A DNA stretch of 64,000 bases. Origin: Escherichia phage vB_EcoM_WFbE185. Made by a program: the position numbers and the translations under genes. Below the pieces are notes generated by a model, which had not been told where the DNA came from, ran no database searches, and saw nothing but the letters and a program-made list of their open reading frames with translations. The stretch is from sequence record MK373778.1; one strand, given 5' to 3'. Shown here piece after piece: positions 7,824-63,038 of the stretch. Every line of letters begins with the position of its first letter. Positions within the stretch are counted from its first letter, which is position 1.

Positions 7824-9338
7824 ATGACTGACATTAAAGTACATTTTCATGATTTTAGTCACGTGCGCATTGAATGCGACGAAAGTACGTTTTACGAACT
7901 TCGTGACTTTTTTAGCTTTGAAGCTGACGGGTATAAATTTAACCCAAAATATCGCTATGGGCAATGGGATGGTAGAATTCGACTTTTAGATTACAATCGT
8001 TTGTTACCATATGGACTTGTAGGACAAATAAAAAAGTTCTGTAACAATATGAGTTATTCTGTATGGATTGACCATAAAATCTTTGAGACCGAAGACCTTA
8101 CCAGGGAAGATTTTGACGCATGGCTTTCTAAACAAGAAATTTATTCAGGCAACGCCAAAATCGAACCGCATTGGTATCAAAAAGATGCAGTATATGAAGG
8201 ACTAGTTAATCGTCGTCGAATTTTAAACCTTCCGACATCAGCAGGTAAATCACTAATCCAAGCACTTTTAGCTCGGTATTATCTAGAGAACTATGAAGGT
8301 AAAATTCTCATTATCGTCCCTACAACAGCATTGACAACCCAGATGGCTAATGATTTTGTTGATTATCGCTTGTTTAGTCATTCGATGATTAAGAAAATTG
8401 GCGGTGGCGCTGATAAAGCGGACAAATCTAAAAATGACGCTCCAATTATTGTTGGCACATGGCAAACTGTAGTTAAGCAGCCTAAAGAATGGTTCTCTCA
8501 GTTCGGTATGATGATGAATGATGAATGCCACTTAGCAACAGGCAAAAGTATTTCTTCAATCATCTCAGGATTAAATAATTGCATGTTTAAATTCGGTTTA
8601 TCTGGCTCATTAAGAGACGGAAAAGCCAATGTAATGCAGTACGTAGGTATGTTCGGTGAAATCTTCCGTCCTGTTAGCACGTCTAAATTAATGGAAGATG
8701 GACAGGTAACTGAGCTTAAGATTAATAGTATTTTCCTTCGTTATCCGGACGAATTCACCACCAAATTAAAAGGTAAAACATACCAAGAAGAAGTTAAAAT
8801 TATTACCGGACTAAAACGTCGTACAAAGTGGATTGCTCAACTTTCAGTAAAATTGGCTAAGAAAGACGAGAACGCCTTTGTAATGTTTAAACACGTTACA
8901 CACGGTAAAGAAATATTTGAAGCTATTAAAGAGCTTGGATACGAAAAAGTTTATTACGTATCAGGTGAAGTTGATACTGAAACACGTAACGCGCTTAAAG
9001 TCATGGCAGAAAATGGTAAAGGCATTATTATTGTTGCATCATATGGAGTATTCTCTACTGGTATTTCAGTCAAGAATCTTCATCATGTTATTTTTGCCCA
9101 TGGTGTTAAATCAAAAATTATCGTACTTCAAACCGTAGGTCGCGTGCTTCGTAAGCATGGTTCTAAAGCTGTTGCTACAGTTTGGGATCTCATCGACGAT
9201 GCAGGTGTAAAACCTAAATCATTAAATACTAAAAAGAAGTATACTCATCTTAATTACTTGTTAAAACACGGTATTGATCGTATCCAACGTTACGCTGATG
9301 AGAAATTTAACTATGTAATGAAAACAATTAATTTATAA
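7824..9338 (+). CDS. uvsW: UvsW DNA/RNA helicase
   Basis: 504 aa; Walker A-like GKS and SF2 helicase motifs; late promoter TATAAATA at 7787-7794. Confidence 0.9.
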   Translation: MTDIKVHFHDFSHVRIECDESTFYELRDFFSFEADGYKFNPKYRYGQWDGRIRLLDYNRLLPYGLVGQIKKFCNNMSYSVWIDHKIFETEDLTREDFDAWLSKQEIYSGNAKIEPHWYQKDAVYEGLVNRRRILNLPTSAGKSLIQALLARYYLENYEGKILIIVPTTALTTQMANDFVDYRLFSHSMIKKIGGGADKADKSKNDAPIIVGTWQTVVKQPKEWFSQFGMMMNDECHLATGKSISSIISGLNNCMFKFGLSGSLRDGKANVMQYVGMFGEIFRPVSTSKLMEDGQVTELKINSIFLRYPDEFTTKLKGKTYQEEVKIITGLKRRTKWIAQLSVKLAKKDENAFVMFKHVTHGKEIFEAIKELGYEKVYYVSGEVDTETRNALKVMAENGKGIIIVASYGVFSTGISVKNLHHVIFAHGVKSKIIVLQTVGRVLRKHGSKAVATVWDLIDDAGVKPKSLNTKKKYTHLNYLLKHGIDRIQRYADEKFNYVMKTINL

Positions 9339-9363
9339 GGGCTTCGGCCCTTAGGAGATAAAA

Positions 9364-10573: not shown

Positions 10574-10972
10574 TTACACTCTATTGCTTGATGCTAACTG
10601 AAGTTTGATTTGTTCGATATCATCAGGGTTATCTACGACCGAAAATCTAATCTCTACTATAACTGTATAGTCATCATATACTGGCGTTACACTTACAGAA
10701 AGTTTGTCGATGCGCGGCTCATAGTTACGGACGGCTGCCTGGATATTACGCTCAATCGTATCGGCTGTAAGTGGTGTCATGTTCTCGAAAAGTTCATCAA
10801 CCAAATCGCATCCAAATTCAGGGTCGAAGGGGCGTGAGCCTTTTCTAGTTGTCACTATGCCAAGAAGACTATTTTTAATAGAACGAAGTCCTACAGAACG
10901 AGCAACGTCCTTGTTCCAATCCATACGCATTTCTGGATCGATATCTGAATAAAGTTTATTGATATTAGACAT
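10574..10972 (-). CDS. 25: baseplate wedge protein gp25
   Basis: 132 aa, same length as T4 gp25; T4 synteny (uvsY-25-26). Confidence 0.9.
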   Translation of the reverse strand: MSNINKLYSDIDPEMRMDWNKDVARSVGLRSIKNSLLGIVTTRKGSRPFDPEFGCDLVDELFENMTPLTADTIERNIQAAVRNYEPRIDKLSVSVTPVYDDYTVIVEIRFSVVDNPDDIEQIKLQLASSNRV

Positions 10973-11598
10973 TATAGTAACTCAAAGAATTCTTTGAGGC
11001 CTCGTATTGTGTGAACGTGTGATGCCCCACATTTGGGACATTTAATAGGGGTTGCCAGATAAATTGATGGCGATACCAAAAGATTTTTAATATTGATCAT
11101 GTCATCTTCTGTTATAAGGCCGTAAAGGTCGTTTATTTCTGCTTCAGTTAAATCTTCAACAGGGATGGACTCTCCATTGACAAAAACGGCCTCAATACAT
11201 GAAGCAATCATTAATGCGATATTTTTATCGTCAAATAATTTAGGTTGACGGAACTTAATTTTAATACCACTGAACGAATACCAGGGATCGGCCTGTTCAT
11301 CTAATTGAGTGTGCAATAAATTCATATAGACTTGAAATGAATGCCCACAGGAACAATTCCAGGTGTGTTCTTGATTCACTTCACCTAATGAATGTGCCCA
11401 CAGATTTACCAACAATAACTCGGCTTCTTGTTTAGTCAAGTTTTTAGCATTAGAGCAATTAGTGATAATATTGTTCACTGCGGATTCAATAGTATCGGTA
11501 GCCCGCGCACCTATGAGTCCTAAATATTCTTTTAAAGTAAAGGCTCTACAATTCACTTCTTTATCGCCTAAACGTACGGTAAACGTATATTTGTACAT
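10972..11598 (-). CDS. 26: baseplate hub subunit gp26
   Basis: 208 aa as in T4; minus-strand late promoter 19 nt upstream; start overlaps gp25. Confidence 0.85.
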   Translation of the reverse strand: MYKYTFTVRLGDKEVNCRAFTLKEYLGLIGARATDTIESAVNNIITNCSNAKNLTKQEAELLLVNLWAHSLGEVNQEHTWNCSCGHSFQVYMNLLHTQLDEQADPWYSFSGIKIKFRQPKLFDDKNIALMIASCIEAVFVNGESIPVEDLTEAEINDLYGLITEDDMINIKNLLVSPSIYLATPIKCPKCGASHVHTIRGLKEFFELL

Positions 11599-24728: not shown

Positions 24729-24763
24729 AATTTCCTCAGTGGGAGCCGAAGCTCCCAATTAAT

Positions 24764-25643: not shown

Positions 25644-25679
25644 ATCTTTTTAAACTTTTTCTGCCCTAAACGCACAAAA

Positions 25680-25697
25680 GGGAGACCGAAGTCTCCC
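25680..25697 (-). terminator. terminator after the 59-aa ORF
   Basis: GGGAGAC-UUCG-GUCUCCC followed by UUUUGUGCGUUU on the minus strand. Confidence 0.55.
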
Positions 25698-25702
25698 TAA
25701 AA

Positions 25703-33523: not shown

Positions 33524-34657
<1,134 letters not shown>

Positions 34658-34674
34658 TCAGTTAGTTTTTTTAA

Positions 34675-34704
34675 ATTGTACCACAATCCTTGTGGTATGT
34701 AAAC
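34675..34704 (-). promoter_or_regulatory. early promoter (GTTTAC-N18-TACAAT) for rnlA
   Basis: -35 overlaps the denA stop; spacer contains CCACAA/TTGTGG inverted repeat. Confidence 0.45.
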
Positions 34705-35114
34705 TACTTTTTCTTATGTTGGATATTCCAAGGCGGGTTGAACTTTTTGATAAAAAGTGGTTCTTCAAGGTCCATTGTTGCGATGGTCATTGAACCAAGT
34801 TCGTTGGTGACTGAAAGGTCAAAACATTGGCGGGCCCAGAATTCAACCTTTTTGCCTTGCATTAAGGCATCCAAAATCATAAGTGATTTTCTTGAATCTG
34901 AAGTCTGGTCTTTTCGATTTATGGCTGTTCGATAATAGTTAATGCGTTTCTTTAAATTCTTGGTTTTACCAATATACACAAGTTCGTCATCTATAGCAAT
35001 AGCATATATGACATTTTTCTTATTAGGGACATCAACTGTTTTAATTGTTGCATCTTCTAATAGCTCCAATTCTGTATATTTAATAAAGGAATATTCGGCG
35101 GCGATATCTTTCAT
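34704..35114 (-). CDS. denA: endonuclease II
   Basis: 136 aa; MKDIAAEYSFIKYTELEL...VIYAIAIDDELVYIGKTKNL matches T4 DenA. Confidence 0.92.
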   Translation of the reverse strand: MKDIAAEYSFIKYTELELLEDATIKTVDVPNKKNVIYAIAIDDELVYIGKTKNLKKRINYYRTAINRKDQTSDSRKSLMILDALMQGKKVEFWARQCFDLSVTNELGSMTIATMDLEEPLFIKKFNPPWNIQHKKK

Positions 35115-35143
35115 AATAAAGTGGGACCGAAGTCCCGTCCTTA
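35115..35143 (-). promoter_or_regulatory. split Shine-Dalgarno-like hairpin upstream of denA
   Basis: Minus RNA: UAAGGAC-GGGAC-UUCG-GUCCC-ACUUUAUU-AUG; AAGGA overlaps the nrdB stop; no SD between hairpin and AUG. Confidence 0.45.
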
Positions 35144-36319
35144 GAAATATTTTTTGTATGAATTGATTACATTTTGGTCTACATCATTATCAATTTGTGC
35201 GACAAGATAAGAACTGATTTCAACTTCCTGAGGAGCTGCTTGAACTAAATCAGAGTTCAGATATTCACGAATCCAAGGATACGGATGCTTGGTCGGAGCA
35301 TCAGTAATTGGACATGGCAAACCACACTGTTTCATACGAGACACAGTCAAGTAATCAACAAAAGCACACATACCCTGCGTATTGATACCTGGACATGTAC
35401 CATCTTTAAAGAGGTGTGCAGCCCATTCCTTCTCTTGACTATTTACTTCCATAAAAATGTCAACTGCTTCTTGTTCACATTCTTTAGCAGTTTGAACCCA
35501 CTCATCACCGTCAGTACCAGATTGAAGTTGACGGATAATGTACTGAGTACCCTTGAGATGGAGTTGTTCGTCACGAGCAATGAACTTCATAATCTTTGCA
35601 TTGCCTTCCATAATTTCCATATTTTTATGGAAGTTAAAGGTACATGCAAATGATACGTAAAAACGAATAGCTTCCAAGGCGTTAATTACATGAAGGCAAA
35701 GATAAAGAGATTTCATTAGCTCACGCTTCCAATATGTCTCATGCTCAATAGCATCTTCAATAACGTCTTCGTCTGCATTAATTTCTTTTTGGTATTCGAT
35801 ATCGGCTTTAGCGTTTTCCCAATAACGAGTTTTAACCAGAACATCATCGTAATATTTACCTATTGATTCAGCTCGTTTCATGATTGCTTCGTCTAATACA
35901 ATCTCATCAAATACTTTGGATGGATCGGTATAAAGATTTCGCATAATATGAGTGTACGAACGAGAGTGAATAGTTTCACTGAATGTCCATGTTGCAACCC
36001 ACGTATCTAATGAAGGGTCGGAAATCAGTGCCATAAGTACCGCAGATGGGGCCCTGCCTTGGATAGAATCTAATAATGATTGATACTTAAGATTGTTTGT
36101 AAAGATGTCCTGTTGGAACTGAGGAAGCTTATTGAACTGCGCAGAGTCCAACATCAAGTTTACCTCTTCTGGGCGCCAGAAAAACGACAATTGCTTTTCA
36201 ATAAGTTCTTCAAAAACTTTATGTCGCTGAATATCATAACGTGCTAGGCCAAGACCAGAACCAAAGAACATTGGTTCATTCAAAACATCGACTTGTTGTG
36301 TGTTAAAAACTGTACTCAT
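35141..36319 (-). CDS. nrdB: ribonucleotide reductase small subunit (intron-less)
   Basis: 392 aa contiguous; di-iron ligand region (EAIRFY... HLKGTQY); T4 synteny; no intron or intron-encoded endonuclease. Confidence 0.9.
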   Translation of the reverse strand: MSTVFNTQQVDVLNEPMFFGSGLGLARYDIQRHKVFEELIEKQLSFFWRPEEVNLMLDSAQFNKLPQFQQDIFTNNLKYQSLLDSIQGRAPSAVLMALISDPSLDTWVATWTFSETIHSRSYTHIMRNLYTDPSKVFDEIVLDEAIMKRAESIGKYYDDVLVKTRYWENAKADIEYQKEINADEDVIEDAIEHETYWKRELMKSLYLCLHVINALEAIRFYVSFACTFNFHKNMEIMEGNAKIMKFIARDEQLHLKGTQYIIRQLQSGTDGDEWVQTAKECEQEAVDIFMEVNSQEKEWAAHLFKDGTCPGINTQGMCAFVDYLTVSRMKQCGLPCPITDAPTKHPYPWIREYLNSDLVQAAPQEVEISSYLVAQIDNDVDQNVINSYKKYF

Positions 36320-36374
36320 TATATTTTCTCACTTAGTTATTAACTCATCCATGAGTAAATTATAATCAAAAGTC

Positions 36375-38630
36375 TTAAAGCTTACAAGCAGAACAATCTT
36401 CAGCTTTAGGTGTTTCTAATTCATAGTCATCTGTGCCTGACCCATCACGAGTGTTATGATAGTAGAGGTTTTTTCCGCCAAAGTACCAGAAGTAAAGCAG
36501 ATCGTCAAGCATTACTGACATTGGCACTTTACCTTTCTCAAATACTGCAGGGTCATAGTAAGTATTAGCAGAAGCAGATTGGCACACCCATTTCAACATG
36601 ATAGCAACTTGGGTCAAATAAGGTTTATTACCTTTCTTAGCAAGTTTCCACGCGTAGTCGTAAAGACCCATGTTATGTTCTATATTAGGAACAACCTGAC
36701 GGAAGTTGCCTTCTTTAGATTCTTTAATACTCACTGGACCACGCGGCGGTTCAATCCCGTTTGTAGAGTTTGATACTTGACTGCTTGACTCACAAGGCAT
36801 GAGTGCAGACAACGTTGAGTTACGAATTCCATGTTCTTTGAGTTCAGCTCGAAGTTCTTCCCAATCACATACGTAGTTCGGGGCTGCGATTTGGTCAATC
36901 TTTTTATTGTACCAGTCGATAGGTAATTCGCCTCTAGACCATTTAGTGTCTGAATAATACTCGCAACATCCTTTTTCTTTGGCGAGTTTGATTGAAGCTT
37001 TGATAAGGCCATATTGCAATCTCTCAAACAATTCATGAGTCAAATCGTTAGCGTCTTCATATGAAGCGAAGTTAGAAGCTAACCATGCAGCATAGTTCGT
37101 AACACCAACACCAAGATTACGACGCTTTTTGGCTTTTAAAGCTTCTGGAACCGGATAATCTTGATAGTCTAACAGGTTATCAAGTGCACGTACTTGTACT
37201 TCAGCAAGTTCATTAATTTTATCTTGGTCTTGCCAATCAAATTTATCTAACACGAATGCAGATAATGTGCATAAACCAATTTCAGCATCAGGACCATTCA
37301 CATCATTAGTTGGAATAGCGATTTCACAACATAAGTTACTCTGACGAATTGGAGCTTTTTCACGAATAAATGGAGTGTAGTTGTTCGTGTTATCAACGAA
37401 TTGCGGATAAATTCGAGCGGTGCCAGAACGTTCAGTCATGAACAATTCAAAGAGTTCTAGTGCTTTGATTCTTTTCTTTCTGATTGTTGGGTCTTTTTCA
37501 GCTTTCTCATAAAGCTCACGGAATTTATCTTGATCTTCAAAGAACGAGTAGTATAGTTCGCCTGACATTTCGTGAGGGCTAAATAAAGTAATATAATCAT
37601 TTTTACCAAGGCGTTCCATCATAAGGTCATTAATCTGAATTCCGTAGTCCATATGTCGAATACGGTTTTCATCCACGCCTTTGTTATTTTTCAGAACTAA
37701 TAGGTTCTCTACTTCTAAGTGCCACATCGGATAATACGCTGTAGCAGCACCACCACGAATACCACCTTGAGAACAAGATTTTACTGCAGTTTGGAAATGT
37801 TTCCAGAATGGAATAACACCCGTATGTCGAACTTCACCCATACCGATCTTAGAACCTTCTGCACGAAGCATACCAACGTTGATACCAATACCAGCTCGTT
37901 TAGAAATATATTCAATAATTGATGCTGAAGTTTTGTTAATAGATTTTAACGAATCACCGGCTTCAATAACTACACAACTAGAGAACTGGCGAGTTGGAGT
38001 ACGAGCACCTGCCATAATTGGGGTTGGCAATGAAACTTGATGAGTAGAAACGGCATCATAAAAACGAATAATATGTTTCAAACGGTCATGAGTTTCGTCT
38101 TGGTGTAAGGCCATGCCAATAGCCATGATAGCAAACTGTGGAGTTTCATAAATCTTCCCAGTTGTTTTATCTTTAACTAGATATTTTTCTTTAAGCTGCA
38201 TAGCACCAGCATAAGTCAGGTCAAAATCTCGCTCATGTTTAATCTGAGAATCAAGATAAATGATTTCTTCTGCTGAATATTGAGACAACAGCTCAGGATC
38301 ATATTTGCCTTCATTAACACAATAAGAAATATGGTCGATAAAAGCAGGAGGTTCAAACTGGCCATACACATCTTTACGAAGTGCAAACATTAATCCTTTA
38401 GCGGCAACATACTGATAATCAGGTTCTTCGACAGAAATCGAGTTAGCTGCAACTTTAATACAAATCTTCTGAATATCTTTGGTGCTCATCCCGTCAACAA
38501 GATGGGTCTTAATTTCTTCGTACAATTCATATGGGTCAATTTGTGTTCCTTCACACTGCCAAGTTAAGACTTGAATAATTTTCTGTGCATCAAAATTTTG
38601 GGATACCCCACTGCTCTTAGTTACTTGCAT
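36375..38630 (-). CDS. nrdA: ribonucleotide reductase large subunit
   Basis: 751 aa; matches T4 NrdA over essentially the whole length (active-site NLCCEI, C-terminal CSACKL). Confidence 0.95.
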   Translation of the reverse strand: MQVTKSSGVSQNFDAQKIIQVLTWQCEGTQIDPYELYEEIKTHLVDGMSTKDIQKICIKVAANSISVEEPDYQYVAAKGLMFALRKDVYGQFEPPAFIDHISYCVNEGKYDPELLSQYSAEEIIYLDSQIKHERDFDLTYAGAMQLKEKYLVKDKTTGKIYETPQFAIMAIGMALHQDETHDRLKHIIRFYDAVSTHQVSLPTPIMAGARTPTRQFSSCVVIEAGDSLKSINKTSASIIEYISKRAGIGINVGMLRAEGSKIGMGEVRHTGVIPFWKHFQTAVKSCSQGGIRGGAATAYYPMWHLEVENLLVLKNNKGVDENRIRHMDYGIQINDLMMERLGKNDYITLFSPHEMSGELYYSFFEDQDKFRELYEKAEKDPTIRKKRIKALELFELFMTERSGTARIYPQFVDNTNNYTPFIREKAPIRQSNLCCEIAIPTNDVNGPDAEIGLCTLSAFVLDKFDWQDQDKINELAEVQVRALDNLLDYQDYPVPEALKAKKRRNLGVGVTNYAAWLASNFASYEDANDLTHELFERLQYGLIKASIKLAKEKGCCEYYSDTKWSRGELPIDWYNKKIDQIAAPNYVCDWEELRAELKEHGIRNSTLSALMPCESSSQVSNSTNGIEPPRGPVSIKESKEGNFRQVVPNIEHNMGLYDYAWKLAKKGNKPYLTQVAIMLKWVCQSASANTYYDPAVFEKGKVPMSVMLDDLLYFWYFGGKNLYYHNTRDGSGTDDYELETPKAEDCSACKL

Positions 38631-41875: not shown

Positions 41876-41893
41876 GGGAGACCGAAGTCTCCC
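41876..41893 (-). terminator. terminator after gene 32
   Basis: GGGAGAC-UUCG-GUCUCCC followed by UUUUGAGUAU. Confidence 0.6.
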
Positions 41894-50873: not shown

Positions 50874-50891
50874 GGGAGACTTCGGTCTCCC
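50874..50891 (+). terminator. terminator after gene 35
   Basis: GGGAGAC-UUCG-GUCUCCC followed by AUUUUUG; the gene 36 late promoter follows. Confidence 0.6.
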
Positions 50892-54600: not shown

Positions 54601-54722
54601 GTGCCCACTCTCATTCGGTAGCGATTGGTTCCCATGGACATACAATAACTGTAAATGCCACAGGAAATACAGAAAACACTGTTAAAAACGTTGCTTTTAA
54701 CTATATCGTTCGTTTAGCATAA
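51606..54722 (+). CDS. 37: long tail fibre distal subunit gp37 (receptor-binding needle with His-x-His repeats)
   Basis: 1038 aa; C-terminal GNHxH / GAHxH repeats (for example [32 protein letters not shown]) typical of the T4-type gp37 tip. Confidence 0.95.
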
Positions 54723-54752
54723 GGAGAAGGGACTTCGGTCCCTTTTTATAAT
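54723..54752 (+). promoter_or_regulatory. split Shine-Dalgarno: GGAG, UUCG-tetraloop hairpin, then gene 38 AUG
   Basis: GGAG (54723-54726), hairpin GGGAC-UUCG-GUCCC (54729-54742), 10 nt to ATG; hairpin folding brings SD and AUG to productive spacing, as described for T4 gene 38. Confidence 0.55.
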
Positions 54753-55304
54753 ATGAAACTCTATCATTATTATTTTGACACTAAAGAATTTTACAAAGAA
54801 GAAAATTATAAACCATTAAAAGGCGTAGGATTTCCGGCTCATTCAACACCAAAAAAACCTTTAGACCCTAAAGAAGGTTACGCTGTTGTATTTGATGAAC
54901 GCGAACAAGAATGGGTATATGTTGAAGACCATCGTGGAAAAACAGTATGGACTTATGATAAGCAAAAAATTGTTATTGACACTCCAGGTGCTCTTCAAAA
55001 TGTTACTACAGAAGAACCCGGTGAATTTGACATTTGGACCGGTGACGGGTGGAAGGAAGATGAAGCATATAAACGCGTAGTTCAACGTGATAAGAAAATT
55101 CATGAACTCTATAAATTATTCAGTGTTTTAAGTTCTCTTATTGACGCAGAGGTTGCTAATAGAGAAGAAAAACGAAAATTTAAAGAGCTCAAAAAATTCT
55201 TTGCCCTTTTAGAAAAACATGAACATCTTGGCGGCGAATTCCCTAAATTCCCTGACCTTGAAAGCAAATCACTTGTTAAACGAATTATAAATATCTTTAA
55301 GTAA
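54753..55304 (+). CDS. 38: gp38 tail-fibre assembly chaperone (T4-type)
   Basis: 183 aa; MKLYHYYFDTKEFYKEENYKP... matches T4 gp38; split RBS hairpin upstream. Confidence 0.9.
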   Translation: MKLYHYYFDTKEFYKEENYKPLKGVGFPAHSTPKKPLDPKEGYAVVFDEREQEWVYVEDHRGKTVWTYDKQKIVIDTPGALQNVTTEEPGEFDIWTGDGWKEDEAYKRVVQRDKKIHELYKLFSVLSSLIDAEVANREEKRKFKELKKFFALLEKHEHLGGEFPKFPDLESKSLVKRIINIFK

Positions 55305-59128: not shown

Positions 59129-59154
59129 TGTTTTGTGAGGAAAAAATGCACAAA

Positions 59155-59170
59155 GGGAGCTTCGGCTCCC
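59155..59170 (-). terminator. terminator after gene 52
   Basis: GGGAGC-CGAA-GCUCCC followed by UUUGUGCAUUUUUUCC on the minus strand. Confidence 0.55.
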
Positions 59171-59246
59171 TAATCATGTTTGTCCAACCAATATAGCCAA
59201 ATCACTAGTGCAGCTATTGCACTGAGAAATCCTAAGGCTAAGGCAC

Positions 59247-62779: not shown

Positions 62780-63002
62780 AGATACCTCTGATGTGTAGTT
62801 CGCCAAAATAAATGCGGTCACCTTCTTCAAGATATTCTGCATCTACAGGCGGAATTTCAATAACAACTTCGTCGCATTCTAACCAGCCGTAGTGTGCATC
62901 GCCAGGATGTTTTACCAATTTAGCACAATAAACTGATTTACACTTATGATGACCACGAAGATTAGCAATTTTGGATTCTGATACGTCAAATGGATGAATC
63001 AT
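62715..63002 (-). CDS. hypothetical Cys/His-containing protein, 95 aa, overlapping denB by 65 nt
   Basis: ATG start after the rIIB terminator; acidic C-terminus; no equivalent recalled between T4 rIIB and denB. Confidence 0.45.
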   Translation of the reverse strand: MIHPFDVSESKIANLRGHHKCKSVYCAKLVKHPGDAHYGWLECDEVVIEIPPVDAEYLEEGDRIYFGELHIRGIYGKDELGAVEAEESSDIYPDE

Positions 63003-63022
63003 AATTACCCCTAAAGAAAAAA

Positions 63023-63038
63023 GGGGACCGAAGTCCCC
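63023..63038 (-). terminator. terminator after rIIB
   Basis: GGGGAC-UUCG-GUCCCC followed by U6 on the minus strand. Confidence 0.6.

Follow-up and report, generated by a model that had tools for sequence, protein, structure and literature searches.

We report that denA, the endonuclease II gene of the T4-type phage vB_EcoM_WFbE185 (MK373778.1), is probably translated from a split, or "accommodated", initiation region of the type known from T4 genes 38 and 25, on a transcript that it shares with the upstream gene nrdB. The stretch of DNA analyzed here, hereafter the window, is 64,000 nt long. At the nrdB-denA junction a Shine-Dalgarno (SD) sequence overlapping the nrdB stop codon is separated from the denA AUG by a stable hairpin; from sequence comparison we infer that denA translation would use this SD and would require the hairpin to fold. 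Experiments have established the mechanism for T4 gene 38, where a hairpin shortens the distance between SD and AUG from 22 to 5 nt, and for gene 25, where the distance falls from 27 to 11 nt, and the main review of the subject names these two genes and no others (PMC3014915). The class of mechanism is thus known, while denA as a member is apparently undescribed: the literature searched yielded no account of a split SD for the denA leader, no reporter-fusion or toeprinting experiment on it and no mapped 3' ends for the junction, and older T4 literature may mention it. If the reading is correct, denA would be a third case of a hairpin-accommodated ribosome binding site in T4-type phages, one that evolved independently and is broadly conserved. 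A specialist is unlikely to be surprised by such a case, which is nonetheless tidy, well supported and useful for annotation: the hairpin is labeled only as a "putative terminator", pipelines that look for ribosome binding sites see none for denA, and the T4 records very probably misplace the start of denA. The case also has a bearing on how a phage sets a low level of a nuclease that degrades host DNA against a highly expressed reductase encoded just upstream.

Anatomy of the nrdB-denA junction

The window phage is a T4-type, RB69-like Mosigvirus with 99.5% identity to Escherichia phage AV110 and 97.8% to RB69, the Tequatroviruses (T4-like phages) standing at about 77% identity. All three genes considered here lie on the minus strand. 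The small subunit of ribonucleotide reductase is encoded by nrdB (35141..36319), an uninterrupted gene of 392 aa recognized from the list of open reading frames and the annotation of relatives with 97-99% identity, which ends in a UAA at 35143-35141. It is followed by denA (34704..35114, AUG at 35114-35112), whose 136-aa product, of the GIY-YIG family, matches T4 endonuclease II (PDB 2wsh) over its full length with E=1.4e-67, and then by rnlA (33524..34648). The window nrdB is free of the group I intron and of I-TevIII, and the gap between nrdA and nrdB (~36320-36374) contains neither mobE nor nrdB.1, in contrast to T4.

The junction mRNA, read from the minus strand, runs ...UAUUUC-UAA-GGAC-GGGAC-UUCG-GUCCC-ACUUUAUU-AUG-AAA. 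The SD-like UAAGGA (35138..35143) overlaps the nrdB stop, its GGA lying at 35140-35138 and being followed by a C at 35137, and is complementary to the final 6 nt of 16S rRNA (...UCCUUA-3') with a duplex energy of -5.7 kcal/mol. Next comes the hairpin GGGAC-UUCG-GUCCC (35123..35136), a stem of 5 bp, four of them G-C pairs, closed by a C(UUCG)G tetraloop, with the arm GGGAC at 35136-35132, the loop UUCG at 35131-35128 and the arm GUCCC at 35127-35123. A U-rich spacer of 8 nt, ACUUUAUU (35115..35122), then leads to the AUG. The first-pass annotation of this DNA had proposed just such an order (AAGGA over the stop, hairpin, 8 nt, AUG), and its coordinates proved exact throughout; it was also right that no SD lies close to the denA AUG, the spacer giving a duplex energy of +2.8 kcal/mol with the 16S 3' end where the upstream UAAGGA gives -5.7 kcal/mol.

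The hairpin core has an energy of -7.5 kcal/mol and a pairing probability of 0.99 in a 140-nt context. Folded in isolation, the 32-nt junction reaches -10.2 kcal/mol (z=-2.48; 4/200 shuffles as good), whereas a 91-nt stretch around it is not unusually structured (z=-0.28), which identifies the hairpin as a local element. Its 14-mer, GGGACTTCGGTCCC, has three copies in the window, at 35123-35136 (-), 54729-54742 (+) and 63024-63037 (-), and none in 100 shuffles. A scan of positions 34000-36500 against Rfam at E<=1 recovered no recognized family, only two chance matches, one to a snoRNA and one to a miRNA.

What sets denA apart from other genes is the distance between its SD and its AUG, measured here with each SD aligned to a fixed anti-SD position. 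Over the equivalent 50 kb of RB69, the aligned spacing of conventional genes (n=45) ranges from 1 to 11 nt (median 5). In the denA leaders compared below (n=27) the linear spacing is 20-26 nt (median 22), beyond every conventional gene, and it drops to 5-10 nt (median 7) once the hairpin is excised, a figure that ignores the width of the helix base. In the window the aligned spacing falls from 21 nt to 7 nt on the same basis, so that folding would be predicted to bring the SD to a functional distance, as the first-pass annotation had suggested. In a screen of 66 RB69 genes, 12 lacked an SD at normal spacing, and in four of these a strong SD lies farther upstream: gene 25, denA, cd.2 and orf245. 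The recovery of gene 25 serves as a positive control; the annotated starts of cd.2 and orf245 are doubtful.

These features outline how initiation might proceed. The UAAGGA over the nrdB stop would be the only SD of denA, too far from the AUG to work at 21 nt in linear form, and the hairpin at 35123-35136 would fold out, reducing the effective spacing to about 7 nt. Whether fresh or just released from nrdB, a 30S subunit on UAAGGA would thereby place the AUG in the P site. The ribosome terminating on nrdB would open the hairpin on its way, since the first bases of the stem should lie in the mRNA channel when the UAA occupies the A site, as known ribosome geometry implies; once it had left, the hairpin would refold and bring the AUG to about 7-9 nt from the SD duplex. 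The hairpin was probably first a 3'-end element of the nrdB message, a stabilizer or leaky terminator, around which the ribosome binding site was built.

The same stem could also hide the SD. Folding predicts an extension of the helix, UAAGG:CUUUA, worth about -2.7 kcal/mol, which leaves the denA SD unpaired with a probability of only 0.33 in the isolated junction, and pairing of this kind would be expected to oppose use of the SD, which we treat as a secondary consideration. Taken further, the SD would be masked by the extended helix until a ribosome finishing nrdB melted it, making denA translation depend on nrdB by structure-mediated coupling. In favor of this, the minimum free energy of the window junction is -10.2 kcal/mol with the extension against -7.5 for the core, the extension is highly probable (0.9-0.98) in the T4-like relatives L004, L024, L037 and L047, and the SD overlaps the stop, which obliges a terminating ribosome to open the helix. 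We nevertheless consider it quite improbable. The extension consists of A-U and G.U pairs and is weaker than the duplex between SD and anti-SD; it is inconsistent among relatives, the SD being mostly unpaired in L023, L026, L039, L040 and L041, and is therefore taken as a by-product of U-rich spacers; and melting the core would put the SD more than 20 nt from the AUG again, so that opening alone gives no usable site. The proven gene 38 region, moreover, has an extension of the same kind.

Conservation of the layout and the denA start codon

Two IMG/VR scans with DenA, combined with records from phage collections, yielded 49 junctions in which denA follows nrdB, every one with readable taxonomy belonging to the Tevenvirinae. 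They reduce to 30 distinct leaders, namely 28 with the hairpin, one truncated duplicate and one deletion variant (L022), and 27 hairpin-bearing leaders were aligned. Distant denA-like matches (L030 and L048-L052) lie in unrelated contexts and were left out of the comparison. Phage records with a denA relative number 1,150 in all.

The layout is constant across the 27 aligned junctions. In each, the nrdB stop (UAA, once UAG) runs straight into GGA, GGAG or GAG, a stem of 5-7 bp, rich in G-C pairs, starts 0-2 nt after this SD-like motif, and the spacer between hairpin and AUG measures 6-10 nt despite sequence drift and small indels. Loops vary more: most are UUCG, T4-likes have GCAA or GUAA, UUUG and UUAG occur once each, and Tegunaviruses have loops of 5 nt. 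All 27 sequences 5' of the stem are predicted to pair with the 16S 3' end, at -1.7 to -8.1 kcal/mol and mostly at -4 to -8, and none of the 27 has an SD in the 3' spacer, where duplex energies are -0.1 kcal/mol or weaker. The conserved GGA lies 3' of the nrdB stop, so that coding constraint offers no explanation for it. The modest strength of the motif in the window (-5.7 kcal/mol) and its great weakness in L023 and L025 (-1.7 kcal/mol each) count against a split SD.

The stem is maintained by compensatory change. When the junctions are aligned on a six-pair helix, 94.4% of cells are paired and 27 cells, spread over 4/6 pairs, are compensatory in the two-sided sense; the covariation score was reached by 0/500 shuffles, and slid registers score far lower. 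The aligned junctions contain at least 10 different stem sequences, which implies several independent compensatory events. Conservation of the hairpin in T4-like denA leaders, to which the first-pass annotation had pointed as a check on its proposal, is thus borne out: the element is both kept and covarying in 27 distinct junctions. G.U pairs occur on the sense (minus) strand only, and the orientation of the UUCG loop is likewise specific to the sense strand, indicating that the element acts as RNA in the mRNA. The same two features rule out a palindrome acting at the DNA level and an antisense RNA.

We favor a split SD because the only SD-like element lies 5' of a covarying hairpin, none is present in the spacer, and only folding of the hairpin gives a normal spacing. 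The reading also draws on the observation that departures from this layout bring other solutions with them. The arrangement of denA after nrdB with an intervening hairpin is present in the Tevenvirinae and absent in Krischvirus and Aeromonas phages; outside the Tevenvirinae nrdB does not lie upstream of denA and the leader is different. In the Krischvirus JSE, the denA leader consists of a hairpin, then GAGGAAAGGA, then the AUG, and in Aeh1 the denA start overlaps the stop of another upstream gene (ATGA). Coupling of this ATGA type is also used in L022 by the nrdB-denA pair itself, whereas in the window the nrdB UAA and the denA AUG are 26 nt apart, with no overlap of stop and start and with a stable hairpin between them.

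L022 (IMGVR_UViG_2974786931_000001, 1440-1510) is a case in its own right. SD, hairpin and spacer are precisely absent, the nrdB TGA overlaps the denA ATG (TTATGA), and there is no SD. Its DenA is Tegunavirus-like and the C-terminus of its NrdB T4-like (KKYL*), which suggests a recombinant. As a natural deletion variant it shows, as far as its sequence goes, that denA can be expressed without SD and hairpin, and the overlap of stop and start in L022 and Aeh1 shows a denA that would depend on the transcript of the upstream cistron. Together, 27 natural stem variants and one clean deletion make up a comparative data set for a rare mode of initiation.

A further possibility is that the hairpin region is coding and that denA starts upstream of it at a conventional site. 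The T4 records NC_000866 and AF158101 annotate a denA of 144 aa (137517..137951) starting at a GTG located 3 nt beyond the nrdB stop, which would give the N-terminus MGRKAHFIMKEIA..., and in JS98-like phages an in-frame ATG occupies the place of the T4 GTG. In T4, this GTG sits in the 5' arm of the hairpin and overlaps the GGAG with zero spacing (NC_000866 137,925-137,958, equivalent to L033 3925-3958, minus strand), and it is not conserved in other genera. The first-pass annotation had named a different start as grounds for abandoning its reading, and the window holds no in-frame ATG, GTG or TTG between the preceding stop codon and the denA AUG. Changes in the stretch follow the pairing of an RNA stem, with compensatory substitutions, and not the pattern of a peptide, the N-terminus MK(D/E)IA is conserved in relatives, and both RB69 RefSeq and the protein in PDB 2wsh (a His-tag followed by MKEIA...) correspond to the 136-aa form that begins at the AUG. 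We therefore regard an upstream start as extremely improbable, and the GTG in the T4 denA records as probably an annotation error.

The SD motif differs between genera, with GGAG in T4-likes (L004-L008; T4, L033 3948-3955) and GGAC in the window. GGAG is the recognition motif of the T4 endoribonuclease RegB. A RegB cut would part the SD from the hairpin and AUG, and control of denA by RegB might accordingly differ between genera.

Among the distant matches, L048-L052 (~1501-1520; IMG/VR contigs of 37-152 kb) encode DenA-like GIY-YIG genes with a conserved in-frame TAG (..KN*VYAIY..) in 5/5 contigs, which suggests that these phages read TAG as a sense codon.

Split initiation regions and UUCG hairpins in the window

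The closest counterpart of the denA leader is the initiation region of gene 38 at the end of gene 37, a classical split SD on the plus strand (54720..54755) that reads UAAGGAG-AA-GGGACUUCGGUCCC-UUUUUAUAAU-AUG, with UAAGGAG at 54720-54726, the 14-mer at 54729-54742 and the AUG at 54753-54755. As the first-pass annotation had noted, the layout is the same: both genes have UAAGGA(G) over the stop codon of the preceding gene, a C(UUCG)G hairpin, a short U/A-rich spacer and AUGAAA, and in the window the 14-nt hairpins are identical. The gene 38 region folds at -14.3 kcal/mol (z=-3.78). The two differ in the strength of the SD, which is weaker in denA (UAAGGA) than in gene 38 (UAAGGAG), in residual spacing (~7-9 nt for denA and 5 nt for gene 38), and in timing and position, denA being an early/middle gene 3' of nrdB and gene 38 a late tail-fiber gene.

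The gene 26/25 split region, GAGG-CCUCAAAGAAUUCUUUGAG-UUACUAUA-AUG, lies on the minus strand at 10970..11003 and matches the RB69 gene 25 leader exactly. Here too a hairpin stands between SD and AUG, and, as reported for gene 25 (PMC3014915), T-even relatives keep the arrangement and T4-type phages at a greater distance lack it, a distribution that denA shares. Unlike the denA hairpin, which is of the GC-rich tetraloop type and occupies a true intergenic gap, that of gene 25 is an A/U-rich structure with a longer loop, located within the end of gene 26. The nature of the evidence differs as well: gene 38 has mutational support and gene 25 is backed by lacZ fusions and DMS probing, whereas the case for denA comes from comparison of leaders. 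All three split initiation regions of the phage fall inside the same 64 kb.

Other intergenic UUCG hairpins in the window are arranged differently. An SD lies 3' of the hairpin at 9336-9353 (+), 24757-24740 (-), 20426-20409 (-) and 63038-63023 (-), and 5' of it only at denA and gene 38. The third copy of the 14-mer belongs to the hairpin GGGGAC-UUCG-GUCCCC at 63023-63038 (-), in the region 63000..63038, which is followed by UUUUUUCUUU and by a conventional SD, AGGGG, 6 nt before the AUG. A natural switch between the two arrangements is seen at the 37/38 junction, where RB69 retains a hairpin and has a conventional GGAGG between it and the AUG, 5 nt from the latter. Gene 38 itself is of T4 type in the window phage (a 183-aa chaperone with split SD; 54720-55300, plus strand) and of T2 type in RB69 (257 aa; L062 48355-49160); the locus is mosaic, and both layouts alternate at a single junction between phages that are otherwise about 98% identical. 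Since the RB69 hairpin persists with the SD after it, hairpins at gene ends have a role independent of SD placement; where the SD lies upstream of such a hairpin, the ribosome binding site is "accommodated" around it.

Transcription through the hairpin and its possible role at the nrdB 3' end

Motif scans place the nearest recognizable promoter upstream of denA in front of nrdB, a T4 middle-promoter-like GCTT-N-TATAAT at 36357..36381 (-), and phage SA35RD has a middle promoter annotated at the same place. They found no late, middle or early promoter inside nrdB; the next candidate is an early-promoter-like site 5' of rnlA, at 34703 to 34675 (-). As the stretch from the nrdB promoter to denA contains no promoter motif, denA transcripts must read through the hairpin, and any termination there would have to be leaky, denA having no recognizable promoter of its own. 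A supplementary T4 omics data set lists DenA protein as detected and classes denA RNA as "middle" and nrdB RNA as "early" (PMC9697503).

The first-pass annotation had added that the hairpin might double as the nrdB terminator, a suggestion that fares less well in the window phage than in its relatives. T4-type intercistronic UUCG hairpins and terminators likewise consist of a GC stem with a UUCG loop right after a stop codon; the denA hairpin departs from them in its stem of 5 bp, its tail ACUUUAUU and a next gene that has neither a promoter nor an SD 3' of the hairpin. By a TransTermHP-style score the window tail reaches -2.51, a value matched by 29% of random positions, while the clear terminator at 63038(-) scores -5.64; the latter, at 63023-63038, differs from the denA hairpin in stem and tail and in that the next gene has its own SD. 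Over the 27 denA junctions the median tail score is -4.0, compared with -2.1 for random window positions, with 13/27 at -4 or lower and 6/27 above -3 in which the geometry is kept. A simple terminator scan picked up the denA hairpin among 6 sites where 3.5 were expected in the region. A terminator role thus appears marginal in the window phage and is better supported in T4-likes, T4 included; in relatives with U-rich tails a leaky terminator or a 3' stabilizer of nrdB is plausible from sequence, and such a role may perhaps be ancestral. The variable feature among the junctions is the U-tail, and the invariant ones are SD position, hairpin and spacer length.

These observations give substance to an account in which the hairpin is purely a 3'-end element of nrdB, a leaky terminator or exonuclease barrier, and denA is expressed at a low level through reinitiation or through an S1-aided, SD-independent start on the U-rich spacer, with the GGA playing no part. 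The spacer has 5 U in 8 nt, against a mean of 2.4 for 66 RB69 genes, and is more U-rich than 63/66 neighboring initiation regions, which points to a terminator role that could itself be the selected function. The hairpin carries the label "putative terminator" in two records (ATK47 and KAW1E185), both times as a software prediction; U-rich tails are enriched among the junctions as a group; RB69 keeps its 37/38 hairpin with the SD after it; L022 and Aeh1 would, from their sequences, express denA by coupling of stop and start; and a nuclease may need just low expression. Yet this account leaves unexplained why GGA or GGAG should be retained in non-coding sequence after the stop in 27/27 lineages, why no lineage gained an SD in the spacer, and why the distance from hairpin to AUG should stay at 6-10 nt. 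The window tail is unexceptional among random positions, the six relatives with poor tails keep the geometry all the same, and reinitiation would face an unfavorable scan of 23 nt across a refolding hairpin of -7.5 kcal/mol. We consider it rather unlikely, and retain the split initiation region as the preferred reading.

The two functions might also coexist. We raise as a tentative possibility that in the Tevenvirinae the hairpin serves a dual purpose, ending or protecting the nrdB message on some transcripts and acting as a spacing adaptor for denA on those that read through, thereby fixing the ratio of an abundant reductase to a scarce nuclease; as part of the same proposal, the module of UAAGGAG and UUCG hairpin shared with gene 38 could be a cassette moved between junctions by recombination.

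The hexamer CTTCGG occurs 32 times in the window against 16 expected. Several UUCG hairpins at gene ends form families of near-identical sequence: GGGAGAC-UUCG-GUCUCCC has four copies (2300-2319, 25679-25698, 41876-41893 and 50874-50891) and GGGAGC-UUCG-GCUCCC two (24740-24757 and 59154-59171). The near-identity of gene-end UUCG hairpins could reflect either recombination or convergence. Two of the hairpins, at 9336-9353 (+) and 24740-24757 (-), lie directly 5' of a conventional SD (GGAG and GAGG, respectively) and have no U-tail (scores of -1.56 and -1.97); they do not resemble terminators and may act, at the 5' boundary of the cistron that follows, as stabilizers or as barriers to processing.
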